Source of the DNA: Bilabrum cf. latius
Lineage: Eukaryota
Length of the DNA: 64,000 nt
Reading direction: 5' to 3'
NCBI GenBank assembly: GCA_965178125.1
Contig: OZ237751.1
Coordinates: forward strand, 186,001-250,000
A model generated the notes under the pieces. It saw nothing but the letters and a program-made list of their open reading frames with translations, did no database searches and was not told the DNA's origin. Position 1 is the stretch's first letter. Every line of letters begins with the position of its first letter. The position numbers and the translations under genes were made by a program. Below, one piece after another: positions 1 through 63,626 of the stretch.

Positions 1-3000
1 GGTCTGGCCGCGTACTCTCACGGAGATCCGGGCCTCAGGGAGGTGGCGGTGCAGGAGGTCGCTCTGGCGGAAGCGGTCAGGCGAGCGGGGCCGGGCGGAT
101 TCTCCGCTGGGGGCGGTGGGGGCCCCTAGAGCCAGTCGTAGCAGGGAGGCATCCAGGGCCGTGATGGAGTTGCATCCCCCCAGGACCTATCCGCGAGGGG
201 GGCGGCCGAAGCGGCTGCGCTGGAGCGGACGCGGGCCCACCGCGAGGCATTGTTCGGCAGCGGAGCCGAACCCGGCACCCCGGGTCAGGGGGGCCCCGGC
301 GCATCGACCCCGCGCAAGCAGCGGTCGATGGCGCTGTCCCCCGAGGCGGTCAAGACCCGCATGCTGGACCAGGTGCAGCAGGCCGGCTTCGCGGCCGAGC
401 ACGCTGGCTGGCGACCCCCCCACGTGGGTGTGCAGCTGGAGCACGCGGAGGCCCAGGCATCAGACAGGGCGGGAGCGCCGGGCATGTCACCCGCCGCTGT
501 GGCCCTGTACTGCTACCGCACGGCGGCGCGTGCGCTGGCCCTCCGGCTGCTCACTCTGGAGCTGCTGGCCGTGTCGGCGGGGGCGCCCGGCTCCCTTCTG
601 TCCAACCGCGGCGAGGAGCTCAGCGCGGACCACGAGCTGATCGAGCGCGTGATCGATGCGTCGGGGAGGGGCGGAAGGGGAGACATCCCGGGCGGGGCAG
701 CGGGCAACGTGGGCGCCGTGGCCATCTGCCGGTACATCTGCTAGAGCGCCACGGAGTCGGCGGTGCGAGGCGCGGCGCGGCTCACCGAGGCTGCCGCGAG
801 GGCCGGGGCACAGGGGGGAGATGGGCCAGGGTCCGGCGATGCCGCCGAGCCGGGGGCCGCGTACGCTTCTCCGCTCAAATCTGCCGCCGTGTCGTAGGCT
901 GTGCTGGAGGCGCGCTAGCAGGCTGTGCGGGAGGGTGCGGGCGCGGGGACAGCCGCCGCACCCGGTGGATCGTTTGGCGCGGCGATGGGGAAGGGGCTCT
1001 TCCGCCCTTTTTCGCAATCCTCCATAGGCACGGACTCGTCAGGAGGCAGCGGGCAGCCGGGCGCGTTGCCCGGCGTGCCCCAGCCGCTGCGCATGGCCTT
1101 CGCGCGCGCCGTCGTGGAGTGCCTCTCTGTGACACACGCACCCGAGGCGGAGACGGCTATGGGGGACGCGGCCGCGACCGTCGGGCTCCGGCTGGCTGCC
1201 TTCCGACGGATGCATGACGCGGGAACGGCCGTCCGGCTGTGCCCAGGAGGGCTCGCCGGGTGGCTGGGAGCAGACCGGGCAGCCGAGGCGCTGGCTGCCG
1301 CTGGCAGGGGAAGCGGTACCGGGGGTGGGGGCGTGTCGCCGCCGGGGGCCTACCTGCAGGCCGCCCTTGCGAACGCGAAGCGGCTGAACGTGCTGCCCAC
1401 CACTGCTCTCATGGCTGCGGCAGATGCGGCGCTGGACCGCAGCTCCAATGCACTCGCGAGCGGTGGGACCCGCAGCAAGCAGAGCCAGGTGGAGACGAGC
1501 GAGGGCGTGGCGGACGAGCTCGACGGGGCCGCGGCTCCCTACGGCGATTCCTTCCTCTTCGACGTGGAGGCGGCCGCGGCGCGGCTGGGTCTGCGGAGGC
1601 AGTGGCGGGCCATCCGTCAGAGGAGGTCAGCCCGCTGGGGCATGGACAACGCCAAGGCCGTGGTGATGCTGCGGCGGGCCGCTCGCTCGCTGACCTCGGC
1701 GGGGGACGGGCCTGGCAGCCCGGTGAAGAAGAGCTGGGGCAGGGGAGCGAGGCCCGCAGCGGCTGGCGCATTCGCCGCCGCGAGAGGTGCCGCCTTGTCG
1801 TCGTCGTCAGCGTCGATGGCAGGCGCCGGCGGCCGCGTCAAGCTCGTGTTTGGCGGTCCCCGGAGCCTCTCCGAAGAGGACGAGGCGCAGCTGGTGCAGG
1901 ACTACCTGGTGGCCTCCGCGGCCGGGTGGGGCCCTCTCCCGCCGGACAATCAGGCGGCGTGCGGCATCGCCGAAGTCGCCGGGGCCCTGCGGCTCGCCCG
2001 CGCAGAGGAGCAGAAGAGGGTGAGGGAGAGGCAGGCGCGCCTCGGGGCCAGGTGGGGGGCGCGCACAGGGCAGCAGAGAGGCATGCTTGAGAACGGCACC
2101 GGGACCGCGGTAGAGGGCGACGGCGAGGACGGCGAGGACGAGGAGGACGAGGACGGTTCGAGCCTGCCGGAGGACCTGGCGCAGCTGGTGCCTGCCGTGG
2201 CGGCGGCACACGAAGCCGCCGAGGAGGAGAGAGACCAGCTGCAGGCGCTGTGGGCCATCGCCGGGTTCAACTGCGTGGCTTCCATCTCGGAGGTGCAGCT
2301 GGACCTGTGCTGCTCCTGGCGCGGGTTCCTAGAGAAAACGATGGGCTTCACCCTTCCGCGCACCCCGCAGGCCGTCTCTTGCCTCAAAGCCCTGCGCACC
2401 AACCAGCTGCAGCTTCCTCTGTACAGCCTGTCGCACAAGACGCCCTACTTCGTGGCGCTCGCGCTCGTGGCTAGGCTGCGGCAGGCTGACCTGGGCGACT
2501 CGATCGTGCTGCAGGCGGCCGTGCACCAGGCCCGGCTGCTCTCCGCTAGCCTGCTAGGGCAGTTCTACGGGGCAGTGCGTGTGCCCTCGAGGAGACACAA
2601 GGGCTCCAGGGAGGCCAGGAGGAAGGCGGACAAGGAGAGCGAGGAATATGCGAGAGCGGGGCTGGCGGCCGACTAGGGCAACGGAGAAGCGGCCGCCGAT
2701 GGGCTGGAGATCCCCATGAGTCCGCCCATGGGCGCGCAGGCAAGTCCTCACAGCGACGACGACTTCCGACCCGAGACCCCTATGCACGCCGCGAGCGAGG
2801 TCGAGCTGGCCGGGCTGAGCACCCTGCACAACGTGATGGAGTCGTTCGGGTCGGCCGAGGTGGCCCGTCTGCTGCTCGCGGTGGTGGGCTCCGTCAAGAA
2901 CGTGCGGGCGGTGCTCGGGGGCGAGAGCCAGAGGGTCGTGCGGGCCTTTTTGGCCCTGCGAGCCGCGGCGAAAGGGACCTCGCGGGCGTCGGGGAGGGGA

Positions 3001-6000
3001 GGCAGGCCGTCTGTGTCGGCCTCCTTGAATCCGGCCGGGGACAGCTCCGTGCTGGGCCAGGTGGCCGCGCAGGGGCGCGGGGATGGTCAGGTGGGAGGGC
3101 TGTCGGCGGCCGCAGCAGAGGACCAGCTGGCCGCCACGGTGGGCATGTCACGGTCGCTGCTGGCCACGGACTTGGTGGGCTCGCTGCTGTGCTCCGCGAG
3201 CGTTCTGGTGACGTTCATGCGGCGAAGGGTCTCCCGGCTGGAGCTGGAGGTGCGGCGCGTGAGGGCGCGCAGGGCCAAGGGCCTCCGGGAGGACGTGGTG
3301 GGGGACGTGGACGCTGCGTCTCACGCGGGTGTGAGCAGGCGCGACCCCCGCACCCCGCGCGTTGGTACACCCGCCGGACGGGGCCGCAGGGGCAGCCTCA
3401 TCGCCCAGTCCACCGCGGCTCGGGAGGCGCGGCAGGCCTCCGCCCAGCGGCAGGCAGTCCCCGTGTTCTCCCCAGGCCGCTCCCGCCCGGCTAGGGCGAG
3501 GGAACAGGCGAGACGAGACAGCACGGCGCAGTTCGCGGCCCGCAGTGACCCCGAGGAGCTGGCCGAAGAGAGGGAGGAGGAGCTGGCGAGCCCGCTGGGA
3601 GCCGCGCAAAAGCAGTGCAGGAGGATGGCGCTGGCAGCGCTCCCGCTCGCGTGCGCGTATGTGCGAGACGCCACCGCGCTGCTGCTGCCGTCATGGTCCG
3701 GGCACGGCGGGCTGGGCGCCGCGGTGTCCGGTACGGCGAGCACGAGCAAGCGCGCCTCCGGACGCGGTGCCTTCGCCGCCCGTGGCCAGGCCACCCGCGG
3801 TGTGCAGGACCTCCGCAGGATCATGGAGTCTGGGAGGCACCCGCTGCTGCTGGCGGCGGAGCGGCAGGCGCGGCAGGCCACGAGCCTCCTCAGCCTGTGC
3901 TGCGAGGCACTGGGCGATGCCGCCCTGTTCCTGCCCGTGCTCAAGCAGTTCGGGGTCATCCCGGCCCTGGTGAGCCTGGGCATGGCCTCGTGCGCGCAGG
4001 TGGCGACCATATTCGACCAGCACGAGTCGGCTTGGCGCGGTGTCTGGCCCGCCCTGGAGGCGGACAGGCGCCGCCGGAGGGAGCGGGAGCAGCGCATGCT
4101 GGACGAGGGCTCTTGGCGGGGCGTCGACTCGCCGCACTTCGAGCTCCCGCTGGCCGTGTCGGACAGCCACGAGGCAGCCGCCGTGCTCGCCGAGAAGCGC
4201 TCCGCCGGCGGCTGCCTGTACGTGGCCGAGGCGGAGACCAGGGCCGTGTCCGATGCCAGGGTGGAGACGGCGGAGCTGTGCGTGACGACTCTGCTGGGGC
4301 TGTCAAAGAGCAGCCGGGCCAGCCAGATGCTGCTCGCAGCACGAGCCGATGGGCTGCTCCTCGCCAATCCGCTGTTCGACCGCATGGAGAGCGTGATGCG
4401 GTCCAGGGGACAGGCCAACGCACTGGGACTCATCCGACCCCACCCCAAGAAGCACCAGGTGCACCGCGTGGACCCCGCGGCGGTAGACGCTAGGTTTGAC
4501 GGCGTCGGTTGGGGCCTCGGGCCCGCGGTGTTTCGGGGCTACGACGACCTGGGCCGCATCAACCCCGCCCACATGCTGTGGCTGCGTTGCCTGGACTTGG
4601 TTCACACGCTGGTGCGCAGGCTGGACCGATCCTACGAGATCGTGGCGCAGCACTCGAGGGCGGCGATCAAGGCGAGGGCGCGGCGGGCGAGGAGGGAAGA
4701 AGCGCGCAGGACCCGCAATTCGGCGGGTCATCGCGCGCGCTCCCCGTCGGAAGCACCGTCCCATGCCAGCGAGGACTCGGTGCGGGACGGTGACTTCGGG
4801 ACGGAGGCCTCGACGGGCATGAGCGACAGCAGGGCGCACAGATTCAGCGAGGAGCTTGAGAGGCACATCAGCGACCAGGCCGACGAGATCGCTGCGGTGG
4901 ACCCCTCCATCGCCAGGGCGGCCTTCTTGACCAGGCAGGAGCTCAATCAGTAGGAAGAGGCCGCCGGTGACGGATTCGGAGCCGATATTCGCCAGCGCGA
5001 GCGCGACGGCGGCTGGGGCAGCGGTGCACCCTCCCCACAGCCCTCGGGCGGCCCTCACGGGACCGAGGCCGGGGAGGGGATGGGCATCGCTGCCTTCCTG
5101 GGCATCGACGAGCCGGGCGCTTGGGACGGGGAGGGCGGCGGGAGTCCCACCGGGGGCAGCAGCCCCATGGCTTCCCCTAGAGCGGGGGGACCTCCCTCGA
5201 TGGTTCGGCAGGACAGTCTCGCGTACACGGAGCACGGCCAGCTGCTGGGCTCTCCTTCCGCAGGGCAGGGCGCTGCGGCACCGGCGACCCCGTGGGCCGC
5301 GGTAACGCCTGCCGGGGGTGCGGCCCTGCGGGCGTCGTAGCTGACAATGGACGTGCCGCGGGGCATAGGGAACAACAATGGCCTCTTCGGGGCCAACGGT
5401 GGCGTCAACTCCTGGCACGCGGCGGCGGGGGCTCCCACCCAGCCGGGAGGCGGCGGGCCGGATGCCCCGGTGGCCGTCGACTCGGCCGGCGGCCCAGCAG
5501 GCGCGCGGGCAGTGTACAAGGGGCGCCGCAGCCTGCAGCCCCGGGAGCTCCGCGTGTTTGAGATCGCGTAGCGGCTGTCCTCGCGGGCCAGCGAGGTCCT
5601 GTACGCCGTGCTGGACAGGTTCCAGGCGACTGCCGTGTCGGCTCTGTCCGGCCGGGTCATGACCCTGCAGGGGCTGCGGGAATCGGGCCAGGTGGCGCGC
5701 GTGGTGGCGCTGGCCCTCAGCGAGCGTCACGCCCAGATCTGGAGGCTGCGGTGCGCGGCACAGGCCGATCTCTCCGTGTCCTCTCAGGCAGCCGCCGGCG
5801 TGCCACCGAGCGAGCGGCAGCGGCCCGTCGACCTAGTCACGAGGTATTTGGAGGCGCTGCAGGGCACCGTGAGGGACTTTTCCGTGTGCCTGGGCAGCGG
5901 GAAGTCCAGAGCGGACTGGCAGGGGGCGCCCGCTGGGATGTAGGGCTCGCAGGCTGGTGCTCGCGACGACATGACTCTCTCGAGCGGGATCGACGGGGCG

Positions 6001-8850
6001 CGGCGGCCCTCGCTGGATCGGGCGCAGCTGGCCCAAGAGCTGGGCAAGGGGCCGGGGTCTGTCGCGGGCCGGCCGAGGCGGACTTCGAGCCTGGGCATGT
6101 CAGATTCTGTGGCGGGCGAGACCGAGAGCGCGCGGACCTCTGGCCTCGCGGCAACCGTGGGGCCGGGCAACACTGACGCGCAAACCGCGGTAGCGAATGA
6201 TAGCGGGGCGCTGAACCGTTGGAAGCTGGAGCAGTTCCACGGAGTGACCTTCGTGCCGGTGGATCCCGAGGAGAGGGAGGCCGGCAAGAAGCAGCGGCTG
6301 GCCGCGGGAGACGAGGCCATGCTGCTGGCGGGGGGCGGCGCGGCCGGCCTAGCCGCCGTCGGTGCCAACGCGATGGAGTCGGCCGCCCGGTCGCAGATGG
6401 GCAGCGGCACTCCGCAGAAGCAGAGAGGCGGCGCTGCCCGGGGCCAGGCACCCATGGATGGCGTGTCGCGCCCCAAGTCGTCGCTCGGCGGCGTGGCGTC
6501 GATCGCGAGACGGGGGTCCCGCAGCCGGTCCCGCCGCAAGCGGCGCAGGCAGATGACGGCCCTGGAGAAGATGGAAGCGGAACTCATCGCGCAGGGTCAG
6601 GGTGCTTATCTGGGTGCCGACGAGGAGATGGGACCCGGGGGCCTAGGGAGGGCGAGAGGCCTGGGGCTGGACGAGGACGAGGACGAGGGCAGCACGGGAG
6701 GTGGGGCGGGATAGACTGGGGACAGTGCCGGCGGGCTAGGCGCGCTGGGCGTAGAGCGCATGCCGTCGGTGGGCGCCGCGCTTGCCAGGGCGGAAGAGGA
6801 GATGGAGGACGAGATGTCCGTGTCGCTGCGCGTGTTCGATGCCTTCGTGCAGCGAGAGCTCGTGCCGGCCGTGCGGGAGGTGATGACAGCCTGCGTCGCC
6901 GCCACTGCAGTGAGGCTGGCACCGGCCCGCAAGGCCCACGCAAAGACGATCGTGATTAGATACAGGCAAGAGAAGGAGCGCGCCAAGGCGGCCTCCAACG
7001 CGCGCGACAGCCCCGGGCCGAGGGAGGCCCACAGGATGTCCAGCAACGGCAATTCCAGCCAGAGCCACGGGAGGCTCGATTCATCCTCACACGGAAGCAA
7101 GGGCAGGAGGGCTGGCAGCAGCTTGCGCAGCCCTACCAGCAGCGGCTCGCGGGGCCGCAGCCGCAGCCGAAGCCCATCCGCGCTCGGAGGCAGCGGGGGT
7201 CGGTTCCGTCGATCCGGTTCGCAGGACAGCCACGGCTCCCAGGACAGCACCAGGGCAGCTTCGGTTGGTGGCGATGCAGCCGGTGGCGGGCGCCGTGGCA
7301 AGGGCGGTGTCAGGCTGCAGGTGGGCGAGGAGGGCCTGCCGGCCGCGTTCGGCGGGGCGGGTGCGTACGAGGAGGCGGTGAAGGAAGCCGTGGTGCATGC
7401 CGACGCGGTGGCGCTGGCTGCCACGGACGCCCAGCAGGCGCAGGCTGCCATCGATCGCGGCCTCGACTTTGAGCCGGGGGCGGGCCTCCGCCGGGTGCTG
7501 CGCGCGGTGGGTCTTTCCGCCGCCACTGCCACAGCGGGCGAGCGCGACTGGCTGGTGGTGTCCCCCGGGCTGGGGCACCTGCTGCTGCTGCTCGAGTACT
7601 GTGTCGCGAGGGGCCAGGTGGCCGACATGTACACGGACAAGGTCGCGACAGGGGCGGGAGGGGCCGTGGTGGACGGTGCCGCGTCCACCTCGACCGCAGG
7701 CGCCGGTGGCGGGAATCCCATAGCGCAGGTGATCGCTCGGCGCGGCACGCACGGTGACTACGACGTGCGGCTTGACCTGGCGGGCGTGTCGGTGGGCGGG
7801 GGTGGGGGCGGGGCCGCCACTGCCTCTGGTTCCGCGACGGGAGGCACATCGGGGGCCAGCACGGTGGGCAGCGAGCTTGGCGGGAGCAGCACCAGCGTGG
7901 CCGTGCTGCTCCGGCCCCAGCTCCGGCAGCTGGCCCGTCTCACGCTCCTCCTGCTCACGCGGGCCGTGGAGTCGTTCGCCACTCTGGCTCCGCAGGACGT
8001 TGTGAGCATGTACGACCCAAAGGCGTACGAGTCGGCGGCTGCCGCGGTGCACCGCATTGACATGCAGATCAAGGTGAGTCGTGCGAGCGAGGCCCAGCAG
8101 AACGCTCTCAGGCAGAAGCGCAAGAGGGAAGAAGAGAAGCTCTGGAGGCTGACGGACGGCGCCGCGAGGGCGGGTCAGTTCCAGGTGACTCCGCAGGCTC
8201 AGAGGCAGTATCAGGAGCAGCTGAGGCACGTGGCGGAGGCGCTCCGAAAATCCGTGGGGGACGCCGGCATGGCGCTGCATGCGATCGAGTCGGGAGAAGG
8301 CAGGGCGCGCGCCAGTGGTGGATCTGTGGGCAGCTTCAGCCGAGGCGGCGGCGGCGGTTTCTCAACGGGCGGGCGCTCCGGCGGACTGGCGTCCGGGCTG
8401 TCGGGGGCGCTGGGCTCTGGCGCCGGGAGGGGCGCCACGGGCGTCTCCGGCGGGGGCTAGTCGGCTCGGTCTTAGCTGCATCGCGCCACCGCCGCGCAGC
8501 AGCAGACGCAGCGGCTGGGTTACGTGGCGAGCGACCCGCTGTCCGTGGCTCGATTCGTGGCGTTCTGCAGGCGGGTGCTCCTGCACCGCGCTGGCATGCC
8601 GGCGCAGGTGGGCGGGGCCCGGCGGCTGGAGATCGATGAGGCAAACCGGATCGTGCCGCAGGGCGCAGGCCGGGAGCCGGGCAAAGAGGCGGGGGCGGAG
8701 GGCGGCAGGAGGCAGGGGTCGAGGTCGCCTAGGAGGTCACAGAGCCGCGGGAGGAGGGGCGTGGTGTCGAGGGCGGCCCTGCGGGCGGGCAATCTTCAGC
8801 TGCAGCGCGGGGTGATGAGCGGCCGGATGATGAGTCAGAGGGGCTTCTGA
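1..8850 (+). CDS. NUP188: Nucleoporin Nup188-like protein, 5'-truncated by the window edge; 13 in-frame TAG read as sense
   Basis: ORF pieces starting at 250, 925, 2716, 5080, 5347, 5608, 5971, 6760 and 8524 share one frame that is open from base 1. They are separated only by TAG (127, 139, 742, 895, 916, 2674, 4951, 5338, 5569, 5941, 6712, 8458, 8473) and end at TGA 8848-8850. Segments YGDSFLFDVEAAAARLG, FNCVASISEVQLDLCCSWRGFLE and AHMLWLRCLDLVHTLVRRL resemble Nup188 C-terminal helical motifs as I recall them. Confidence 0.6.
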
Positions 8851-9143: not shown

Positions 9144-12100
9144 ATGGTAGACGCTTTGGCAAAGCATTACCTGTTTCTTGTGAGGTATGCTCGAATTTAG
9201 CTAGTTAAGGCAGCGCTTGTTACTGCTACACCCGCCGCCGCGCAGGATCGACCAATTCCACCTCGGTACTCCCTAAATTCGTCCAACGCTTCGCAGGCCC
9301 TCTAGGAGCAGCTAGGACAGTATGTTGTTGGGCTTAAACCTGAAGCCCTCTCGCTGTCCGTCATGTCCGGCCAAGTTAGACTCGTTGACCTTGAGGTCCG
9401 GCCCGAGGCTCTGGATGGACTTGGATTGCCAGTCAAGGTAGTGTCAGGATCGATAGGCGCCATCGAGATCAACATAGACTCTTATTTTGCGTTAGCATCA
9501 ACTCCAATTCGAGTTGTGGTGAAGGATATATTCCTTTTGGTGAAGAAAGCCGTCCTGACACCAGACGAGATGGAGCGAAGGTCAAAGCAAGCTAAAATTG
9601 GGAATATCAAGCAAGCTTCAGTTCTCTGGAAGCAAGAGCGCGCAAGAGAGATTTCGAAGAAGTCTAGCAAAGGGGGTGACGCGGATGAAGCCATGCTTCC
9701 GGGCGGGATAGTCGGTCAGATCCTTGCAAACCTCTCCATTTCTGTGGAGAATTTCCACTTGCGGTATGAAGACGAGGATTCGAGCACTGCTGGAGGATTC
9801 GCCGCTGGGATCACGTTCAGCAGCTTCAGCAGCTCTCGCGCGAAACGAACCGCGGCCGAGAAGTCGGTCGAGATCGAGCGGCGCAACGCGGAGCTCGCCG
9901 CTCTGAGCGTCTACCTCGACCCCATGCAGACACCAGCAAGCAGCCTGGCCGGATTGAAGGGAGTTCCAAGGAGCCGCGCATTTCTCGCGTAGATCCACGG
10001 CGCCACAGGTGCCGGTGCACCGGCCGCGGCCCCCCGGCACAGCTACGTGCTGGAGCCCACCTCGGCTCACCTTGGGCTCGTGCTCAACCCAACCAAGCAC
10101 CACGGATATCCCAGCGTGGGCGCGTACCTCCGGGTGGATCGGCTGGGGATGGGCCTCGAACAGAGGCACATGCAGAGCTTGCTGTGCGCCCAGAGCTGGT
10201 ATGCCACCCGGCGGTACCGCCCGCTGCAGCGGCCGCGAGCGGGCCGGAGTGCGCGCGCCTGGTGGTGGTACGCCGTGCATTCCACCGTCGGGCAGACCTC
10301 GAAGGCGAACGCAGACGGAAACATTGGCGACGGCGGCGACAGGAGGTGGTTCTTCGGCCACAAGTGCAGCCGCATCACCGGTCTGAACAAGCGCAGGAAG
10401 CGCTACATTGAGCTGTACAAGGCGCACATTCGCAGGGAAGAGGAGGACCTGAGGAAGGGCAAGCCGGGCGAGCACCCGCCGCCCAAGGAAGAAGTAAAGG
10501 AGCTGGAATCGCTCGAGCTGCAGTTTTCCGTGCGGCAAGCTGTTCTGTTTAGGATCATGGCATCAAAGTACCTGGATGCAGAGATGGAGGCGAAGGAATC
10601 TGCAGAGAAGCAGCTGCAGGCCAAGGGGAAGGGTTCCATTGGCTCGTTCATGGGCTTCTCTGGGCCCAGCAAGGCGGATGAGGCGCGGATCCGAGCCATG
10701 GAGAGAGCCACCGCGGCCCGAGTGGGCCAGTCTCTCATCGCTGGGATCGACCTCCAGGCCGTGGACGACGCGTCCACGCTGTCGGCAGAGTACGAGAAGA
10801 TGAGGGTCGAGGTCAGTCTTGGCGAAGCCACGCTGGAGCTCAAGAAACAAGGGGCCCTCCCTGCGCCTGAGCTCCCACGCCGCAGCAGCGCCAGTGGGTC
10901 CGGCGGCCTTGGCAGGAAGCTGTCGTCCCGCAGGTCGGTTCTGGACCAGGCGCTGGAGCGGCAGGGAACGGCAGGAAGAGGCGCCTCGGAATCAAAGTCG
11001 AGCGGAGCCGCTGCGGGGAGAGAAGACGACCTCCCGTACGTCCTGCGTGCCTCAATCGGCGGTCGATTTGCGTTCGTGCAGAGGCCGAGCAGCTGGGCAA
11101 TGGAGCTGGCTCTGGACGATGCCAGGGTCTTGGACGGGTGCACCAGCGGGACCAAGTTCCCTACTGTGCTGGCCCCAACGGGCACCGACTTTGAGTCTCA
11201 GCCGACGGCCAGCCGACTGCTCGAGATCATGCCAGATGCGGCCCCGCCCGACCTTGCGGCAGACCCGCAGCTTGCCTTGGTGCTGGGCGGCGACGTGCCG
11301 GAGATGCACGAGCGGACAGGTGAGGAGGAGAGGGAGCTGGTGGCCCTCCGGGGGGAGCTATCCACCCTGACGATTCTTGGGCCGGCGATTGGTGCCAGCT
11401 CTGGGACGGGAACTGCAGCAGCCGGGGCTAGAAGGGGTGGTGGTGGCGGCCGCCGCCCGTTCGGCCTGGTCCGCATCGAGCAGCACCCGCTCGAGATGCA
11501 CGTAGGCCAGTCAAAGCCTAAGCCGCGGGAAGACATCGACTTCAGAGTATCTGTAGGCATCTTGCCGTGCGAGGCCGTGCTGGCCACCCCGCTGATCGAG
11601 GCAGTTGGGGTGTTCTTCTCTCGGCCCGTGGCTGCCGCAATGTCCAACTCCTTCTCTTCCGAGCTGTCGGCCTCCCTGGATGCCATCAATCAGTCCGCGC
11701 AGCAGGATCTGTACGCTATCATGGCGAGCAAGCCCACGATCGATGTGCGGATGCTTGTAGGAGCGTCCCATGTGATGTGCCCCGACAGGTGCGACACGCT
11801 CGGCGCTCCGCTGCTTGTGGCAGAGCTGGGCGAGCTGTGGCTCCTCTCTCGCGGCCAAAGGCGGGCAGAGGGACAGGAAGAAATGGATGTCACCGAGGCA
11901 GACGTGCGGCGAATCGCGGCGGAATCAGAGGCGGGAAGGCACCGGGACCATGCGAGCGAGGCTGCAGCCTCAGGGGCGGGAGCTGGCGGCAGTGGGCGTG
12001 ATGGTGGTGGCAGCGAGCAGGAAGCATCAGGGGGCGGGGCCTGGGTCGTGGGGGACCCCGACTCGTCCTATCGAGTGGAGGACACCATCGAGACCCGCAG

Positions 12101-28400: not shown

Positions 28401-28472
28401 GTACATGTGGCGCAGTGGAAGCGCACTTGATTTCGGTTCAAGGGGTCCCGGGATCGAACCCCGGCATGTATT
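28401..28472 (+). tRNA. tRNA-Arg (anticodon TCG)
   Basis: Cloverleaf: acceptor GTACATG/CATGTAT, D-arm GCGC-AGTGGAA-GCGC, anticodon arm CTTGA-TTTCGGT-TCAAG, T-arm CCGGG-ATCGAAC-CCCGG, followed by a T-run (Pol III terminator). Confidence 0.85.
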
Positions 28473-49076: not shown

Positions 49077-49546
49077 TGAGTTTTGGCCTACCTTTCCGCA
49101 AAGAAGGCGGGAATTGCACTTTGTCATTTTTTCGACCGTTCGGTACTTTGTTGCGTGTCAATTCAAGTTGGGCAGAGCGGCTCTCCTTAGCCTGCTGCAG
49201 CAGAACTGGTGGGGTGGGCTCTTTGAGTGTACCTTGAACCGCATTCTGTACTATGTGGATTGGGAGATATGTTGGCAGGATCGCTCCATTTTCTCGCTTG
49301 TATCAGGCCGTCGCACCGCGGTCGAACTGCAAGATTTTGGTCGCAAGTCTGCGTTCCACCACAATGAGGCAATCGCAGCAGTTCTGGACGACCCCACTAG
49401 CGTGTAGCAGCCCATGCGTCCCTGCGCGCTAGAAATGTAGTTCAAAACAACACAACAAGCTTCTGTTTGGCTACCCTACGACTCGGAGCCAAAATCATCG
49501 TGGCCAAGCGTGCGATCAACTGCAAGTCATATTTCACTTCCAAAAT

Positions 49547-50536
49547 ATGTTCAGAAAGATTGCACTGGGAGGAGTCGCGGCGGGCCTTGGAGTAGCTTAT
49601 TACTTGAATTCAACAGTTCGCGCGGCCAAAGTACCAACAGCAAGCATTCTGGCCAGGGAGCGCGCCAGACCTTCCGGTGGCGATGAGACCCAATACACCG
49701 ACTGCTTCAAGGTGAAGCTCTCCCCGAGATGCGCAAATCTGCCCCCAGGCACCATCGCTGCGTGTCTATTTGGCTCTGTTCCGCTCGGATCCATCGAGAT
49801 TCCCCTTCTGTCACGGCTGCAAGGGGGCTCGGTGGCTTGTCACGCAGAGTTCTACACGAGCGACGACGTGCTTCATTCGCGATTGCCAGGTTTTCAGAAG
49901 GCTGGAGGCCCGACGCACGACGATCATCCCGACGGATCTATAAACGAATACTTCTACAATAGGTTCAAGTTCTCTGATGCCATTGCGCTGGGCCTTGTAG
50001 ACCTTCGAAGCATCACAGAGTTCCATCTTGCAGAGGCGAGATCACGTGGCGAGGTCCTAGTGTACGCGAGACGAGAAGCCGACGGAACCCTCTCTGGAAG
50101 AGGCAATCTAGCATCAGGTAATCAAGGTGTCCCTGCGCCTGAACCAGCCGCCAAAGGCATTTTGGACGAAGTCTGCTTCAGATCGGGAGAGCAGTTGCCG
50201 TTCACCACAAGTACTTGGGCTGCGGTACGGCAAGTTCCTCCCTACAGCCCCCCTGGCACCAAGCATCGTCCAGATGAGAGCAGTATCACTGCTTCCGGGG
50301 AGAAAGAGGTCGAGCTCATGTTCGGGTCGCACGCAAGGATGCGCGGACCGGTGGTACCCAAGAGTTTTCCTGGGGCTAACCTGCTAGAAAAGGGGCTATT
50401 TTGGTTCCACGACCTGTACTCCAAGATCATAATTGTGGCTGTAGCCAACGAGGTCGAGCGAAGAGCTAAAGAGATAGAGGTCTCCGGCGAAGCTGGCCTG
50501 AAATCTCGCTGGTCAAGCGACGGCTGGCGGGAGTGA
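49547..50536 (+). CDS. Hypothetical 329-aa protein with N-terminal hydrophobic anchor, possibly DUF2867-like
   Basis: Uninterrupted ATG..TGA ORF; MFRKIALGGVAAGLGVAYYL; YTDCFKV, ELMFGS and FHDLYSKIII motifs recall DUF2867-type proteins (family call tentative). Confidence 0.7.
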   Translation: MFRKIALGGVAAGLGVAYYLNSTVRAAKVPTASILARERARPSGGDETQYTDCFKVKLSPRCANLPPGTIAACLFGSVPLGSIEIPLLSRLQGGSVACHAEFYTSDDVLHSRLPGFQKAGGPTHDDHPDGSINEYFYNRFKFSDAIALGLVDLRSITEFHLAEARSRGEVLVYARREADGTLSGRGNLASGNQGVPAPEPAAKGILDEVCFRSGEQLPFTTSTWAAVRQVPPYSPPGTKHRPDESSITASGEKEVELMFGSHARMRGPVVPKSFPGANLLEKGLFWFHDLYSKIIIVAVANEVERRAKEIEVSGEAGLKSRWSSDGWRE

Positions 50537-50687
50537 GATCTACTGATTGGCTGCTGATGGCTGTGCCAGGGGCGCCTGATGCTGCCCGCTGCCAGGTCGG
50601 ACCATGCAACCACATATCACGGGTGACAAAACATGGCATGTATGCATGAGCTGTGCGCCACAGATACAATGCCGACAACAAGATACT

Positions 50688-50817
50688 ATCCAATGCCAGT
50701 GCGGCAGTCAATGCCACACCCACATGCGCAGCCAGAGCGGCCACAGCCCCAGATCCAATGCCAGTGCGGCAGTCAATGCCACACCCACATGCGCAGCCAG
50801 AGCGGCCACAGCCCCAG
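50688..50817. repeat. 65-bp perfect tandem duplication spanning the myotubularin stop codon
   Basis: atccaatgccagtgcggcagtcaatgccacacccacatgcgcagccagagcggccacagccccag occurs at 50688-50752 and 50753-50817. Confidence 0.93.
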
Positions 50818-53800: not shown

Positions 53801-56800
53801 GTGTCAAGCCGAAGCGACCTAAGATCCGTGCAGATGACGTGCAGCAGTGCGCGAGCAGGCGGCGCATCCGCAGGGCGTGCGCTATGCCTGTGCTTGGCCC
53901 ACTCCAACGTGGTCGGCAGGCGCTCCCCGTGGTCTCCCGCAGACGTCCCTAGCCCGGTGCCGCCAGCACCCGCGGCACGAGCAACTGCCGCGGCCTCGCG
54001 AGCGTGCTGTCCCAGTACCGCAATGGGGACTGCGCTCAGCTGGGCCGGAGGCGGCGCAACCACAACTTGAGGGTTGTCGCTGCCGACATCCCTTGCGCCT
54101 GCAGAGCTTCTCTGGTCAAGGCTCGCGTCATCGCCGGAGGATGCACCTGACCCAAATCGGCTGCGCTGCTTGCCTCCCTGGCTGCGGGGTCTGCTTGCAG
54201 CGGAGGAACCAGAGGCTGACTTGCCGACGGTTGATGAACCCTCACCGGCAGCCCCGCCAGCCCCCGACTCGGTCCGCAGCACGGCCACAGGGGCGGCTTC
54301 CACCATGGCAGGGGACTGTTCTGACGTGCTGCCTTTGCCCGTGCCGCCCAGCCCTTGAGCGCGGGCGGCGTGCTTAGCCTCGAGCTTGGTCGGGTCTGGC
54401 ATGATCTTGCTGGCTGCCACGCGGGCGATCGCGGTCAGCGGCAGCGTGATGCCTTCGTCTCGCCTGGCGGGACCCGTGTGCCCCTCGAAGCTGGCGCGAA
54501 GATGCACCCAGCTGCGCTCGTTCAGCGAGGCACCCACATTGGCTCCGCTCCCTGCAGCCTCACCGTCTCGAGCGAACGCTCGAGCCGCGTGCTGCCTCTC
54601 CCTGTACAGCGCAGGGTGAGCATGACTCTCCCTGCACAGCCTACGGATAGTCTCATCGATGGTGGCGCGCTGCTGCGTCTCCTCTGAACCGGGGATGTGG
54701 TCCACGGAGCTGCTGCGGCTGCGGGCCATCTCCCTCCCGGACCGCGTGGAATCGCCCTCGCCTGCATCTAATTGTTTGCTCTTCTTGCGTTTCTTGTCCT
54801 TCTTGGGCTTCTTGGGCTTCTTCCTAGCGGTGGGGCTGCTCCTGCCGCTGCGTGCTCCTGCTGAAATCCCTTGGCTCTGCTATTTGGCTGCTTGTGGAAC
54901 AGATGCGCCGCCTGCAATGCCTTGGCTAACAGGCTCCATCGCTCCCCGAATCGATCGCAAACCCGCGGCCTACTGTCCTGCACGCGGGTCATTCTACTGG
55001 GATAGTTTCCATTCGACTCTTTCTCTCCTAGAGAGCTGCTACTGCTTAGCCTGTCCGCCCGATTCGCCCTGTCCCGGTCTCAGGGTCGGTTCACTATCCT
55101 CGCTGGAATGTGACACGAACACTCTCAACCGGTCGTGTAGGCCGATACTGTGGGTCCGATCGAGACTGCTACTGCTGCTGGTGCGGCTGCCAGTCAATGA
55201 AACGAGATGCTCCTTCGGGCTAGTGTCACCTGCATCTGGTGCGTCCTCCCCGCCGGCCTGGTGGACATCAATGCCCTCAACGAGTCGCAGCCTGCACGCC
55301 GGGTCCAGCACCTCCTCCACTAGAGCAGCGTACGGCAAAAAGTGCAGAGCATACGTGGTCACGAATAGCACCCCTGGCCTTCCTCGACTCGTCTCTCGCA
55401 CGCCGTGAGCAACGTACAGCGGCACTTCGCCATGCTGAAGCCTGCGGGCGAGAAGCCACCAGCCCTGCAGCACGAACCTGGAGAGAGCGGAGGGCAGCTC
55501 GGGCAGCCACCGCAACGCAGCGATGCACCCACTAGAGCTTCTGGGAGCATCCACCGCGCTGCTGCCGCTGCTGCTGTTATTGCTGCTACCGCCATCCCTG
55601 CCGGTGGCTCCTCTCGCAGGGGCAGGGCTCAGCTCCCTCACCGCACGGAGAGCCTCTGCCCTAGGAGGCACCCGCAGCACGGACGCAAACGGGGGCAGCC
55701 CCGCCTCTCGCACCCACGCGGGAAATACTCGGCCGATCCTATGCCCCGACGCGTCCAAGCCAGCCACCATAGTCCCAATGCTGCTGGCCCCCGCCGCCAG
55801 CATCGAGGGATCCACGGTCAGGTCCCAATCGGTCGACTCGAGCCTTGCCCTGGTGCTGAGGAGCATGGCAGTGGAAGACGGACCGCCCTCTCTCCATGCA
55901 TCGAATGCTTGCGCGCCCTCTCCCGCGCCAGCCTTGATCTGGGACCCAGGCACCATCGACCGCGAACTGCCTGGCCCAAGTAGCGCCGACACTCCCGCTG
56001 AAGTCGATCGCAGCACGCCCTCCTAGACCTACAGTGGTGCCAGTGGGGAACCCCTCCCGCTCGCCAAGTCGGCATCCGAGAGCTGTCTGTGTCTCACGAG
56101 GGGCGAAGGCTTGTGCACTGCCGGCGATCCGCTCCCGCCCAGCACGGCAGCTGTCCTGGCCCTGCTGCTCTCCCTGCCCCTCTTGAGGAGGCTTGGACCC
56201 TCCTCCGCGTCCGCCCCACCGGATGCCATCCTGCCTGCTGACACGCCGCTCCATCCCCTCTGCCTGGCGTTGATACGACGCGGGCGGGGTGGCGTGCAAT
56301 CCACAGCACTGCTGCTGTTCGCAGCTGGGTGAGCTCCGTGCCAGTGAGGTGCTGTCGGCAGCGGGAGCGTGCTCACTGGTGCTTCGGACTCTGACGGCAC
56401 GTCTGCTTCTCCTCTACCATCTGTCGCCCTAGCCGACTGCCCCAGTCCATTGTCTGCCCCGTACTCATCTTCTGACTCGTCCTCGCTCTCTTCGTGGCCC
56501 CGAGTTGCCTCGAGCGCGATGGCCCAGAACGGCAGCACGCGCCCGTCCAATCGAGCCGGCACCTCGACATGTGCAAGCTCACCGTCGCCCGCCCCCGAGC
56601 CACTTTTCCCCACCAGCCTCCCGCTGTGACTGTCCATTGGGCCCATCCCCTCTGGGTCGGTGTCCCTCGCGGCCAGCAGCATGGACAGGTCATCGGGCGC
56701 GTCCGACTGCTCGAGTTCCCTGGGAGTGGCCAAGAGAGCTAGGGCGGGGCACACGCTGCTGGGCGCTCGACGGTGGAGAAGCCTGTCTTTCCAGCCGATG

Positions 56801-58290
56801 CGGCGGCCGCTGCGCCCTGCCCGTCTGCCTGTCCCCACAGCCCCACTCTGGCCCGCCCCACCCGGATCATCCGGATCTAGGTCCCGTGCCCCGCCCCACG
56901 ATGCGCTCGAGGACGAAGCTCCCCTAAGAAGCTGCCTGACGCCACCAGGGCGCGCTTGCCTATCGTCAAAGAACGGCGCCCGGACGATCCAGCCGTGCTG
57001 AAGCCACTGGTGCCGCGTTGCCAGTTCATCGGTGGTACCTCCCCCGCTTCCCACTCCCTCTGCTGCATGTACGTCCTGGCCTCCCAACGGGCTACCGTAC
57101 ATGCTCCACCCGTCCGCTTTACCCCCGCTGCCTCTAGCACCGACAGGCCCCGACTAAACCCCGGGTGCCCCGTCGCCCGGCCCACCCCCGGACCCCCCCT
57201 CCCCACCACCACCGCTCATGCCTCCCCCAGCGACCCCATCGCTGGCTCCATGCAAACCACCCTGTGCCGCAAGCGGAGATATTATGCTCACCACCGAGTC
57301 GCCCCGCACCAAGTACTGCCCCTGCGCGCCCCTACCGCCCATGGGACTACCGTGCATCGGCCCGCCCAGCAGCGGCGCGGCACCGGATGGTTGCCCCGCG
57401 CCGCTTTGCGAGCCGGTAGTATGGGAGGGAGGCAGTGAGGGCGGGCGCGGCCTGGGAGTCGGGTCCGCGGGCCCAGCTGCGACCAGGGGTGGCATGGATT
57501 CGGAGCCAATATCGCTCGCCCGGCGGGCCCTCCACCCGAGTGCCCAGGCGACCCTCCAGCGCTGCAGCCGAGGCGCTGCCCTGGCCCTGGCGGCCTGCCG
57601 CGCGGCGGATGTGCGCCGCATGCCCGCCATGCCCAGCCTCTCACAGGTTTCTAGCTGTCCCAAGGCTGCCTCCGCCGCGATGAGCGTCATGTCTTCCTCG
57701 GTCGCAACCACCCTGCGCATGACCTCGTCCTGCAGCCGGAGCGCTTCCTGAGCCGCCTCCCTGTGGCGCTCCGCAAGCTCCGGTTCCTTTCGCGCGTCTT
57801 GGCCGCGCTTGAGCCTCTCTGAAAGGGTATTTCGCCTATCCAAAGTGTCATACAGCTCTTGTTTCAGCACTTTTGCCATGTGCAGATCCGGCGCGATACG
57901 CCCAAGCAGCGGCCCCAGCAACGAGGCAGCCAGCTCGTGGGCAACTGCGCGCTGGTACGCATCCCATCCCTGCAGTGATCCTCGTAGTTGTTGCAAAAAT
58001 GGTTGGTCGAAGGCTGCAGCCTGTTGCAACGTAGAATCTAGCATTCGCCTCAATGCTCCTATCGCCTTGTCAAACGCCATGAAAGCTTCCCTGTACCTAA
58101 TTACGACGGACACTGCCTCATCTACTTGTAATCTTAACTTCTTCATTTTATCTTTCAATGCTCGAAACGTCGCACTTGTATCGGTGGCAGACTGGGAAAA
58201 CATGGCATGACCCATTCGGCGCCATACATCCCATTTCCCTTGTCTCGAGAGATTTGCTGCGGCTGCAGGGTCTCCATCATACTAAGACAT
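50773..58290 (-). CDS. Myotubularin-family phosphoinositide 3-phosphatase (~2,505 aa) with N-terminal BAR-like helical domain and PH-GRAM-like segment; 12 in-frame TAG
   Basis: WRVDSSTNEGF*LCESYPAEYIVP, YRARHRLPVVAW, LLRSAQ, FDARPLLNA*ANRANGGGFE, FLDIANIHAVRKAL, catalytic SCSDGWDRTAQLSALAQVLVDPYCRT, RAPIILQLLDCAWQMGRQLPHAFEFNE. Eight ORF pieces lie in one frame from ATG 58290 to TGA 50773. Confidence 0.9.
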
Positions 58291-58453: not shown

Positions 58454-60246
58454 ATGATGCGGGCCCTTAGAGCAGTTCGAGGAGTGGCCCGGGCTACAAG
58501 AAGCCGTATTAGCTGCTCTGCTTCCGTTGGGCTGCGGTTTGCTTCTCAAGATGTCCGATCACTGGCTGCTGACCTGAACAGGTCTCTGGAAGACTCCGAT
58601 CCGGCCCTGTTCGACCTGATCGAGAAAGAGAAACAACGACAGCGAACATCACTAGTCTTGATTGCATCCGAGGTAAGAACTTGACTCCTATTTCTGTCCT
58701 CAATACTCCTATTCGTAGATGCCTGCAGCGACAGTTGCTCCGCTGTTCCTGCGCAACCCGCACCTTCTTGGATTCAGCCGTGCTGGCGTGTAGCAAGCAC
58801 ACTTTGGCCCTACCATGCGTCTAGTATGTATTGTGGTGGTCATCTGCGCAGCCCCTAGCATTCGAATGATGCCTCCGTTCCGGCCCCTTGCATCGCTCGC
58901 AGAATTTCACTTCGGCGTCTGTGCTGGACGCGCTGGGCTCCGTCATGAGCAACAAATACAGCGAAGGATACCCCGGGGCGCGCTACTACGGTGGAAACGA
59001 GCACATCGACGCGGTCGAGCGCTTGTGCCAGCAGCGAGCGCTTGAGGCGTTCGGTCTGTCCGAGGACGAGTGGCACGTGAACGTGCAGAGCCTGTCTGGC
59101 TCCCCCGCAAACTTTGCCGTGTACACGGCCCTGCTGCAGCCGCACGACCGCATCTTGTCTCTGGACCTGCCCTCTGGGGGGCACTTGTCGCACGGGTACC
59201 AGACCGACAAGAAGAAGGTGAGCGCGGTGTCTGCGTACTTCGAGACGCTCCCCTACAAGCTCGACCCCGCCACCGGGCTGATCAACTACGACGAGGCGGA
59301 CCAGCTGGCCAGGGCGTTCCGCCCCAAGCTGGTGGTGGCTGGTGCCTCTGCCTACGCTCGCCTGATCGACTACGAGAAGATGAGGCAGATCGCCGACCTG
59401 AGCGGGGCAGTGCTGCTGGCAGACATGGCGCACATCTCGGGGCTGGTGGCCGCGGGCTGCATCCCCTCTCCCTTCGACCACTGCGACGTGGTGATGACCA
59501 CCACACACAAGAGCCTAAGGGGGCCCAGAGGTGCCCTCATCTTCAGCAGGAAGGGGGTCAAGTCCGTCAGCAAGAAGGGGGTCAAGACCATGTACGACTT
59601 CGGACCCAAGATCGACTCTGCCGTGTTCCCTGGCCTGCAGGGGGGCCCGCACAACCACACGATCGCGGCTCTTGCAACCGCCCTAAAGCAGGCGTCTTCC
59701 GCCGAGTTCAAGCAGTACCAGGATGCCGTCATGGGGAACAGCAGGGCCCTCTGCGAGGAGCTCATGGGTCTGGGGTACGACATGGTGAGCGGGGGGACCA
59801 GCAACCACCTGTGTCTGGTGGACCTCAGGTCCAAGGGGATCGACGGGGCCAGGGCGGAGCGGGTGCTGGAGTTGAGCGGGCTGGTGACCAACAAGAACAC
59901 CGTGCCGGGCGACACGTCCGCGATCGTGCCCGGGGGTATCCGGCTGGGGGCGCCCGCCATGACCTCGAGGGGGCTCGGTGAGGAGGACTTCAGGCAGGTG
60001 GGCCGGTTCTTCGATAGGGCCGTGCAGCTCGCAGTGGAGGCCAAGGAAGAGGTGGCAAAGGGGTACACGGGCAAGGGCAAGCCCAAGCTCAAGGACTTCT
60101 TCGCGGGCTTGACAGCCGAGGGCGAGGAGGCGCTGCAGGTGGCGCCGCGGATCGCCGAGCTTCGCGCCGAGGTGGCCGAGTTTTCCAGCGGGTTCCCCAC
60201 TGTGGGCTTCGAAGAGGCTAGCATGAAGTACCCCGAGAGGCAGTGA
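58454..60246 (+). CDS. SHMT: Serine hydroxymethyltransferase, probably mitochondrial, 520 aa; join(58454..58672,58903..60246)
   Basis: LIASE|NFTS across a GTAAGA..ctcgCAG intron, [27 protein letters not shown]-lysine motif [20 protein letters not shown]; Arg/Ala/Ser-rich presequence; TGA stop; no TAG. Confidence 0.97.
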
Positions 60247-60476
60247 ACAGCGAGAGATCAACGGCAGTGGCAGCCTGAGTGTTCTACAGGTTGTTGCTGT
60301 CTGGCGGAACCGCGGCAAAGAGAGGATTTATGCGTTGGCCGCGCGCCTCGCCTCGGCCAGACTGGTTTGCGTGCTGATGAAATGGCAGCCACACTGGCGA
60401 TGCGTATGAAATCATTTATTTTCTTGTTGCGCTGCCAGTGGCAAGACAAACCAAACAAAACGTGGGTGCTAGCATG

Positions 60477-61058
60477 TCATGTGCCTCCTCCGACTGCCCC
60501 AGTGGCAGCGTGGCCCTCTGTTGCTGATTTTGAGTACACAAGAACAGACGTGAACTTGTCTGAGGCTGACTTGCTTGTGGCTGCGGCGGCGGCAGCAGCC
60601 CCAGTCGCCGCAGCGGATGCTTCGCTAGACGACTTGCCTGTCCCGCTTTGCACCACGACCCTTCCCTTCTGAGTATGGAGCTCGATGCACAGAATGCCAT
60701 TTCCTTCCTCATTATCCCAGGCAGCACAGTCGGCTCGTGCCCCAGAGGCCAGTGAGCTGCACAAAGGAGCTATCCCTGCAGCAGAGGTGCCACTTTCTGC
60801 GATGCAAACGATTCAAAGGCGCGCTAGAGCCACTCAGCCCAAAACGTCGGTTCAGAATGCAAATATAGAGCACGCAAATACTCTTACGGCCGATGAGCAT
60901 GCCGCTCTCATCCGTCAAAGCAGCGGCATCGGCGCGCTCATCTCTTCTACTGCGGTGCGCAACGGAGATTGGTGGCGGTGGAAGCCGTGCGATCAGTGTC
61001 CAGAAACATACATAAATGAAGACACGACCACATACATTGCTTCGCATGCCTGCTGCAT
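60477..61058 (-). CDS. LAMTOR5: LAMTOR5/HBXIP-like Roadblock-fold protein, 134 aa; complement(join(60477..60796,60888..60949,61036..61058))
   Basis: Two GT-AG introns (61035..60950 GTATGT/accgCAG; 60887..60797 GTAAGA/atcgCAG) give MQQACEAIRRDERADAAALTDESGMLIGQSGTSAAGIAPLCSSLASGARA..GILCIELHTQKGRVVVQ..FTSVLVYSK, matching the LAMTOR5 pattern CTDSQGLNLG..VVCLESDNGNIMIQ..TVAVHK; TGA at 60477. Confidence 0.65.
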
Positions 61059-61230: not shown

Positions 61231-63626
61231 TCAATCCACACCAAACCGGAAGAAATCGCTGCCCTGGTCCGGAGCCCCACCGGGAACTGCTGGCCCGCCG
61301 CCCACCATTTCACTAGCACCCATGGACACGGCTGCACCCGACGACGAAGATGCCGCTGTCTACCCAGCCCCCATGCCAGCCCCCATGCCAGCCCCTCCGC
61401 CGGCATCCATCCACGCAGGACGTAGGGACACCCCCCGGGGTCCTACACTGTCCCCCCGTTTGCCATACCCCTTCATGGGGACAGCCCCACCTACCGGCTG
61501 AGCCGCAGACGCCCCCACGCCCCCCTACCTAGCGAAAAAATCAGCCATGGATTCCTCCGCCTCGTCCTCGTCCTCGTCCTCGTCGCCGTCTCCCATCCCA
61601 TCGCCGTGCCCCGTAGCCATGCCGGCCTCGATTTCATCGCCCGTGGGATCAAGGTATTTCTCTACCATCCATCGGGCTGCCAGCGCAGCTCCGTGCATGG
61701 AATCCCCGGGGCTACTAGAGGCCGGGCTGTCCGCCAGATCCCCGAGGTGCTCCAGCCCCCTGGACTCTAGCACCACTGGGACGAGCCCGGGGCGGTGCTT
61801 GCAGATCGTGTGCAGAAAAGCGACGCTCTGGTACACCACCTGGACCCTCTTTGCCAGCACCCTGCGCACCACCACGCCAACGAACCCAGGGAGCTCTGCC
61901 ACAGCGTCAAAGTACTTGCCGGGGGGATGCACCACGAACCTGCCACGGGCGTCCACCATAGCCCCCTCTGCCACTTTGTCCAGCTTCGAGCAGCCCACCC
62001 CAAAGGAAGTCTCCTTTGCCCACCCAGCCACAGGGGATGCCTCCTTTGTGTCGCGGGCGAAGGCCACCTGCGTCAGGCAGATGAGAGACTCGACAGCCAG
62101 AGCAAAGGTTCCGTCAGCCATGTCCAGCAGGTGTGGGAGCACCCCTCCCTCCACGAAGAATTTCGCGTGCTGCTCCCCCCTGCCGGGAGGAGACACCAGG
62201 TTGGCCACCACCCACATGGCCTGCTGCTTCAGCGCAATCACATCCACCGGGGCGGACGCACCGCCCACCAGTCCCCGGGCATTCACACTGGAGCTGCCCG
62301 GCCCCTGAGGCACCGAGTGGTCCAGGCTTGGCACGGGCCCGGCTTGCCCCGCGCCTATTGCGCTCCTCGACGACTCCTCGGCTGCCTTCGCGGCGGGGTG
62401 TTCCCCGGTTAGGATGCCCCTTACGGAGCGCATGATGGAAGGAACGGCCGCTACTGCCTCCGTGGGCGCATGGTGGCTCGTGACCCCGCAGCTGTTCCCC
62501 ACAACGGTCAGCAGCGGTGCTGCCATCCTGGACGTCCTTGCGTGAAAGAGCGCATTCCCGGCCAGCCTGAGCCCCCCTTTGTTGATGAACTGCTTAAGGA
62601 TATTGTCATGCACCTGCACGATCATTGCCAGCAGCTGGGCCGCTTCGGCGCCTATGGTTTCGTCCACTGGCCCAGAGGCATGGGGGCCAGCACCGCTGCC
62701 ACCCTCCTTGCTCTCGCTTGCACCAGCACCAGCACCAGCACCGGCACCCTGTTTGAAGGCAACTCCCGCCATGGCAGCCCGCTCTGCTGCGGCCTTGCTC
62801 ATGGTGACTCCGTCAGAGCCGCTCGCGCCCGCCTAGTGCGCGGCCGCCGGTCTCAGCCAGTAGAGGCAGAGGGCCACCACATCCAGCTCGAGGATGGTGC
62901 GAGGCTCTAGCCCCGGTCCCCGCATCATGTTGGTCAGGGCCCAGAGGCACGTGCTGGCGAGAGAGATGGGCCGCTGGTAGGCGCTTCGCATGATGGCGGC
63001 GAATGCGCCTTGGGCCAGAAGAACGTCCCGCACTCGATCGAGAGAGGCGGCCATGGTGCCGAGCGCGTGCACGGCGTACTCTGCCATTACCTTGTGCTCA
63101 CCCTCGGCCAGGCGGATGATTTCGGGAGATACTTGCATGACGTAGTCCACGTGTTCGTCTGTGCCCGTGGCAAGCGTGTCCACGATCCAGACGGCTTCGA
63201 GGCAGTGGGCATCCAGAACCGAACTCCGCTGCTCGCCCCTGCCGCCCCGAATGAAGAACCGCAGAGCTTCGATCAGATTGAGGTCCATGACAAACTCCAA
63301 TGGCGGGTCATCGTCTTGCGTTATGGCGCGTCGGATCATCTGCAGCCCTTCCAACTGGTGCCTGGCCTTGGGGCCCCGGATTGCCTTGCGAGCTGCCTCC
63401 CGTAAGGCGTCTGGAGATATCGCGATGACTGGCTCAGGCCCTCTGCAAGGAACAATTCTTGAATGAGTTTTCAAAATTGCGTGTTTACGTGGTGAGAGGA
63501 GGCTGTCTGGGAGATCGTGTATCCGGGAACGAGCAGCACTCACCGTCGTCGAGTTCGAACCAGCCTCTTTTCCCGCTATAATCGAACCCGCTGTATGCTT
63601 TTGCTAGAGCGTGCCTACGAATACAT
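61231..63626 (-). CDS. Importin-alpha-like ARM-repeat protein (~764 aa); complement(join(61231..63442,63544..63626)); 5 in-frame TAG
   Basis: Basic IBB-like exon 1 MYS*ARSSKSIQRVRL*REKRLVRTRRR; intron GTGAGT..ccttgCAG; ARM motifs LEAVWIVDTLATG, AEYAVHALGTMAA, CLWALTNMMRG, QQAMWVVANL; acidic tail, RPAWM, DFFRFGVD then TGA 61231. TAG at 63615, 63576, 62833, 61525 and 61360. Confidence 0.78.

Follow-up and report, generated by a model that had tools for sequence, protein, structure and literature searches.

The DNA analysed here, hereafter the window, is a 64-kb stretch from Bilabrum cf. latius (assembly GCA_965178125.1, contig OZ237751.1, positions 186,001 to 250,000 of the forward strand), and the present work concerns the genetic code of its genes, in which TAG stands within reading frames, most likely for glutamine, while TAA and TGA are absent from them. 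The GC content is 66% over the 64 kb and ranges from 57 to 73% across 4-kb windows. When TAG was read as a sense codon, very long reading frames emerged, which the standard code breaks into fragments. A Pfam search of the window proteins recovered three families, VPS13, myotubularin phosphatase and serine hydroxymethyltransferase (SHMT), and these domains, together with GT..AG introns, identify this 66% GC stretch as nuclear DNA of an intron-poor eukaryote. The intron joints were taken from contigs of three public runs (X5, X6 and X7) belonging to two studies; the runs were taken to be RNA by guess and the contigs are Logan contigs, so that transcript ends and expression levels derived from them are hints only. 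These joints revealed three short introns on the minus strand (63442>63544, 63613>63712 and 60796>60888), as well as the SHMT intron described below.

Within the window, nine gene models (G1 to G9) and one small spliced gene were recognized. The first model, G1 (1..8850, plus strand), is an open reading frame (ORF) of 2,949 codons that is open at its 5′ end and has no Pfam family; it contains 13 TAG and no TAA, ends with TGA, has a third-position GC content (GC3) of 0.85 and uses the glutamine codons CAA/CAG at 5/129. It is followed by a VPS13-like gene (G2, 9144..28106, plus strand) of 6,320 codons, with 24 TAG, no TAA and a TGA end, whose protein matches VPS13_N (E=9e-46) and VPS13_VAB (E=4e-8). 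On the minus strand, the membrane-protein-like gene G3 (29760..32369) and its paralog G4 (36843..39569) are nearly identical and separated by some 7 kb; G3 carries six TAG, three of them within its final 27 codons, and G4 carries seven, two of which probably lie in the 5′ untranslated region; both lack TAA and end with TGA, and codon 857 is TAG in G3 and TTG (Leu) in G4. Also on the minus strand, G5 (40476..49127) comprises 2,883 codons for a coiled-coil, low-complexity protein, with five TAG, no TAA and a TGA end. The myotubularin-like phosphatase gene (G6, 50773..58290, minus strand) has 2,505 codons with 12 TAG, no TAA and a TGA end; its Pfam match is Myotub-related (E=6e-80), the best stretch covering residues 2215-2366. 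The last model, G8 (61231..63699, minus strand), has no Pfam family, two introns in its 5′ part (~63443-63543 and ~63614-63711), three to four coding TAG, no TAA and a TGA end. One TAG is found in G9 (49253..50536, plus strand), a weakly supported ORF with a coding score of about zero that ends with TGA and is covered by contigs of X5-X7 from ~49550.

The gene G7 (58460..60429, plus strand) encodes a mitochondrial-type SHMT, with exon 1 extending to ~58670 and exon 2 starting from ~58901. The joint 58670>58901, a GT..AG intron of 230 bases, is present in X5, X6 and X7, and splicing there recovers the N-terminal part of SHMT that is otherwise missing. The Pfam SHMT match (E=3e-183) lies at 58888-60246, TGA at 60244-60246 serves as the stop codon, and the contigs of transcripts extend no further than 60429. 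An ORF on the opposite strand (58509-60224, minus) was rejected as an antisense shadow, the real gene being SHMT on the plus strand. This gene, the most conserved of the window with the highest GC3 (0.88 at 58888-60246), contains no TAG in 452 codons and 16 CAG; about 1.8 TAG would be expected at the TAG/CAG ratio of the window, and the shortfall, which is not significant, would be in keeping with TAG being avoided where expression is high. The small conserved gene (~60414..60900, minus strand) faces SHMT tail to tail; it is spliced at 60796>60888 (a 91-base intron) and ends with TGA.

Across the nine gene models (18,135 codons), TAG occurs 73 times in frame, and TAA and TGA do not occur at all; counted as glutamine codons, the TAG make up 73/838 (8.7%). 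At least five of the 73 lie in 5′ parts of doubtful coding status (codons 22 and 39 of G4, codon 3 of G6, and codons 13 and 32 of G8), and codon 13 of G8 falls in an intron, which gives a cautious total of about 68. The absence of TAA was not built into the models, since ORFs called with TGA as the only stop kept the bounds of the big ORFs and still contained no TAA, with only the upstream limit of VPS13 shifting from 8922 to 8880. Counts in the two other frames of these genes (off-frames) were 27 and 23 for TAA, 101 and 90 for TAG, and 244 and 188 for TGA; thus, in-frame TAG occurs at close to its neutral frequency, and TAA and TGA have been purged alike. Outside the genes TAA is common, with 39 on the plus strand within 9.6 kb of intergenic DNA.

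Were the two codons TAA and TAG synonymous, 13-16 in-frame TAA would be expected from the in-frame A/G ratios (CAA/CAG 114/651, GAA/GAG 193/884 and AAA/AAG 67/358), and 19 from the off-frame TAA/TAG ratio. The probability of finding none beside 73 TAG is 8e-6 to 5e-7 by the in-frame ratios and 4e-8 by the off-frame ratio, so the lack of in-frame TAA goes far beyond chance and GC bias. These counts bear out the first-pass annotation of this DNA, which had described some 17,000 codons with about 70 TAG and no in-frame TAA, and ten gene models all terminated by TGA (here the nine models plus the small spliced gene). Its caution that high GC makes TAA scarce is answered by the 13-19 expected in the window and by the result from a relative with lower GC described next.

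This relative is represented by a metagenome contig (L001) that carries an SHMT 91% identical to that of the window, adjoining a myotubularin ortholog of G6. The ortholog comprises 1,690 codons with a GC3 of 0.51 and CAA/CAG of 26/36, and it contains 14 TAG, no TAA and no TGA. Between 8 and 10 TAA would be expected, and the probability of none beside 14 TAG is 5e-4 to 1.4e-3; because the GC3 of this gene is only 0.51, the objection from GC content is thereby answered. A counterpart of the small conserved gene lies at ~7200-7600 (minus strand) of the same contig and also ends with TGA, while a tblastn search of the contig found no ortholog of G8. With 73 TAG against no TAA in the window and 14 against none in the relative, the uncoupling of UAG from UAA proposed in the first-pass annotation is upheld.

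These data bear directly on the ordinary code in which UAA and UAG both specify glutamine (table 6), under which TAA would be missing here only because GC3 is about 0.8. UAA and UAG do usually change together, as stated in the abstract of Panek 2017, and G1 alone, with its CAA/CAG of 5/129, would predict almost no TAA. Over all genes, however, the lack of TAA has a probability of at most 8e-6; the relative, at balanced GC3, has none of the TAA expected of it; and, compared with the off-frames, the reading frames are depleted of TAA to the same extent as of TGA. In-frame UAA as glutamine, the defining feature of table 6, was found neither in the window nor in L001, and we consider this code very improbable here. 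UAA has no detectable use as a sense codon.

We then considered whether the TAG codons are translated as written. In G6 the last TAG is codon 1919, and the myotubularin domain runs about 450 codons further, to residue 2366, so TAG is read through in this gene. No letter differences from the window were found in contigs of the four runs compared (44001-64000). When codons were mapped to coordinates, seven TAG codons were found to be covered, without change, by contig pieces of X5, a run that carries spliced forms; among these pieces only that of G8, which covers the TAG at codon 289, is itself spliced. RNA editing or sequence error at the TAGs is therefore unlikely, with the run contigs serving as support rather than proof. 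More broadly, the TAGs might be explained away by editing, introns, assembly errors or pseudogenes, a proposal worth weighing given that introns do exist in the window; nothing in its favour was found. The unchanged letters in the four runs, including the seven TAG in X5 contigs, the contrast of 73 TAG with no TGA and no TAA in the same frames, and the recurrence of TAG in the ortholog of L001 leave it with hardly any credibility.

To identify the amino acid, the residues that relatives place at TAG columns were compiled, giving 25 columns (15 from the L001 alignment, plus 7 and 3 from other relatives), in which the partner was glutamine in 9. A likelihood analysis with BLOSUM62 over the 25 columns placed glutamine ahead of the next residue, glutamate, by 4.6 log10 units and ahead of serine by about 5, while leucine fell outside the six best-scoring residues. 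In the L001 alignment, the 15 columns with TAG on one side paired with glutamine three times, alanine twice, glycine twice and other residues once each; the three glutamine columns have the best-conserved flanks, and their partner codons are CAA, CAG and CAG. Predicted proteins of closer relatives, taken from public protein collections and 87-97% identical to those of the window (P0124, P0277 and P0278), have glutamine at 5/7 window TAG columns, with lysine and serine at the rest, and those of relatives 62% identical (P0279 and P0125) have it at 1/3. For VPS13, glutamine stands in relatives at 4/6 TAG columns. The glutamines of these relatives are probably encoded by CAA or CAG, because TAG had been treated as a stop when the proteins were predicted; one contig, for instance, yielded VPS13 as two fragments, P0277 and P0278, with a gap of a few codons between them. 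Judged from the partner residues and the BLOSUM62 likelihood, UAG most likely encodes glutamine, as the first-pass annotation had suggested.

For termination, TGA was found at 10/10 gene ends in the window and 2/2 in L001. Genes ending in TAG, the pattern that the first-pass annotation had linked to a context-dependent code, were likewise absent in this small sample (0/10 in the window and 0/2 in L001). TAA-terminated genes hidden between the models were considered and rejected, as such ORFs score near or below zero for coding, and those small ORFs that score best (33.4-34.7 kb) end with TGA. The latter belong to a region (33400-34780, plus strand) with several short ORFs of positive coding score, all TGA-ended, which suggest a small multi-exon gene between G3 and G4. 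The TGA stops of G1, G2, G3 and G4 are directly followed by TG (TGATG, 4/9), which may be chance.

A context-dependent code, in which UAG is glutamine inside genes and also terminates near mRNA 3′ ends, as in some ciliates and Blastocrithidia, could find a foothold in the terminal TAGs of G3 (27, 13 and 6 codons before TGA) and G4 (27 and 6 codons before TGA), two proteins whose ends are not fixed by homology. None of the ten window genes, however, needs TAG as its end; SHMT ends with TGA in both the window and L001; and in G1, G2, G5 and G6 the last TAG lies far from TGA, at distances of 125 to 1,151 codons. The feature typical of Condylostoma and Blastocrithidia, one codon serving both as sense and as the regular terminator of many genes, was not seen in this small sample, and we regard a code of this type as improbable.

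Several repeats were observed around these gene ends. A 52-base unit repeated 15 times (99% matches) lies at 36063-36843, immediately past the stop codon of G4, where it creates long spurious ORFs on both strands, and a single copy follows the stop of the paralog G3 (near 29700-29760). Inside G4, a (CTGCCC)29 array at 37127-37300 gives rise to a long Gly-Ala run, of which G3 has a short version. The stop codon of G6, the myotubularin gene, lies within an exact 65-base tandem duplication (50688-50817), and one X5 contig contains a single copy, so the copy number differs among data sets.

Taken together, the reading that we favour, and hold to be reasonably probable, is that the cytoplasmic code reads UAG as glutamine without UAA having followed, UAA most likely being a stop and UGA the preferred one. 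A tRNA that reads UAG yet ignores UAA must have the anticodon CUA, and eRF1 must lose its hold on UAG, as set out in the available text of Panek et al. 2017 (PMC5304391). In the present organism, a dedicated tRNA-Gln with anticodon CUA, probably derived from tRNA-Gln(CUG), would decode UAG and be unable to pair with UAA, while eRF1 would have lost recognition of UAG and would still read UGA. Such a dedicated tRNA appears likely because a frame with 24 TAG, that of VPS13, could hardly reach full length by inefficient near-cognate readthrough. UAA would most likely remain a stop codon, rare at gene ends because, as we propose, a GC-rich genome prefers UGA.

The window contains two tRNA genes, tRNA-Arg(TCG) (28401..28472, plus strand) and tRNA-Lys(TTT) (29282..29354, plus strand), neither of which is a suppressor tRNA. 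Both lie in the gap between the convergent plus- and minus-strand gene blocks (28107-29759), where a C tract (~28657-28672) and 6.5 copies of a 14-base repeat (28731-28821) are also found. An ARAGORN call of "tRNA-???" at 6320-6410 was dismissed as false, as it falls within the coding sequence of G1 and lacks Rfam support. No tRNA genes were found in L001, and no eRF1 gene in the 64-kb window.

Some observations weigh against the favoured reading. The tRNA-Gln(CUA) that it calls for is absent from the window, where Arg(TCG) and Lys(TTT) are the only tRNAs, and from L001. Non-glutamine residues occupy 16/25 of the TAG columns. In a distant comparison of myotubularin with the best 150 matches, one TAG column is mostly V/L/I/M (78/115, with glutamine in 4) and another is E/K/S/A (glutamine in 12/139), while the third TAG column of the region falls in an insert; these columns are too variable among distant homologs to identify the residue and are uninformative. 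A terminating TAG in G3 and G4, six codons before TGA, must still be allowed for. TAA is found at 0/12 gene ends, so the stop function of UAA is assumed, and the sample is small, comprising the 64-kb window and 8 kb of one relative.

The last points lead to the main rival, in which UAG is glutamine and UGA is the sole working terminator, with UAA unassigned, lacking a cognate tRNA, released poorly or not at all, and driven out of reading frames and gene ends alike by GC pressure. This fits the absence of TAA both in frame and at the 12 ends, the more so as the GC3 of 0.51 in L001 should not disfavour TAA; moreover, UAA dominates the stops in the Iotanema and phyllopharyngean UAG-only codes, as far as the available text of the published descriptions goes, unlike here. 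Twelve ends, however, give little power: in ten ends, the probability of seeing no TAA would be 0.35 if TAA made up 10% of stops and 0.11 at 20%, and overall about 0.1-0.6 for shares of 5-20%, so that with so few ends the missing TAA says little about UAA as a stop. The genome is also not free of TAA, given its frequency outside genes. To our knowledge, a eukaryotic eRF1 that reads UGA and not UAA would have an unusual specificity, which likewise counts against this rival. We consider it unlikely, though deserving attention, and its strict form, in which UAA has been vacated altogether, being neither decoded nor a stop, after the capture of UAG for glutamine, is somewhat less likely still. If true, GC pressure would have emptied a nuclear stop codon once its counterpart UAG had been reassigned, and the eRF1 would recognize UGA alone, or UGA far better than UAA, a preference that has not been described for UAG-only codes.

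As for the lineage, the best named SHMT matches among the 120 listed are from stramenopiles and streptophytes (63-72% identity). In a tree of 27 rows hand-picked from these 120 matches, with no other supergroups sampled, the clade of the window stands apart from the plant clade, on a long branch amid the stramenopile rows, a weakly supported placement (34/87). The names of ten myotubularin matches gave no useful indication. With 66% GC and ORFs of 2,500-6,300 codons, the window does not look like ciliate DNA. Amoeboaphelidium, which parasitizes algae and has UAR=Gln, was rejected as a relative, its genomes having about 40% GC against 66% here. The table 6 codes of many ciliates, hexamitin diplomonads, some ulvophytes and Amoeboaphelidium share UAG=Gln and the UGA stop with the window; they also use UAA as glutamine, which is never in frame here.

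The practical consequence is that gene callers using the standard code split such genes at TAG, as in P0277 and P0278, so databases will hold the proteome in fragments until its genes are predicted with the correct code. The literature searched, which leaves most subscription journals uncovered, yielded no account of a UAG-only code from GC-rich organisms beyond the ciliates and fornicates. According to published work, UAA and UAG almost always change together and few nuclear lineages split them. Every independent case is a test of whether a mechanism or mere habit ties the two codons together. Split codes are indeed rare, as the first-pass annotation had put it, but they are documented, in Iotanema spirale, Protocruzia tuzeti, Hartmannula sinica and Trochilia petrani; for P. 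tuzeti, the text available to us mentions a UAG=Gln code. Reassignment of UAG without UAA is also described, in the portions available, with other amino acids, namely leucine in the rhizarian exLh and in uncultivated phyllopharyngeans, and serine in Scotinosphaera; the window resembles these codes in the split and differs from them in the residue, which here is most likely glutamine.

The closest likeness is to the fornicate Iotanema spirale, the first organism shown to have UAG=Gln with UAA and UGA as stops, for which the available text of Panek et al. 2017 (PMC5304391) reports 204 in-frame UAG in 126 genes and complete genes ending with UAA in 104/119 cases and with UGA in 15. The window displays the Iotanema-type features that were tested, namely in-frame UAG in conserved genes, glutamine at TAG columns and the lack of UAA and UGA within frames, which also holds for Iotanema. 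UAG does not terminate any gene in Iotanema; here none of the ten ORFs ends with it, although G3 and G4, with TAG six codons before TGA, may have their true ends there. Unlike Iotanema, where UAA is the main stop, the window has UGA at 10/10 ends, and its 66% GC and mitochondrial-type SHMT mark a different organism. In the phyllopharyngean ciliates H. sinica and T. petrani, UAG alone is likewise reassigned to glutamine, and UAA is the preferred stop, UGA ending 8.1% and 13.1% of genes, respectively (McGowan et al. 2024, PMC11687900, available text); UAG accounts for 18.5-31.8% of the glutamine codons there and 8.7% here, and only UGA ends are seen here. UAA as a terminator, dominant in the available accounts of both Iotanema and the phyllopharyngeans, is the one exception among the Iotanema-type features looked for at gene ends and in frames, as it was not seen in the window. 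A split code with UAG=Gln is therefore already known, and what is unusual here is that UGA is the only terminator seen. With its high GC and UGA-only ends, the window represents the compositional regime opposite to that of Iotanema and the phyllopharyngeans, and it could reveal an eRF1 with a different codon balance.

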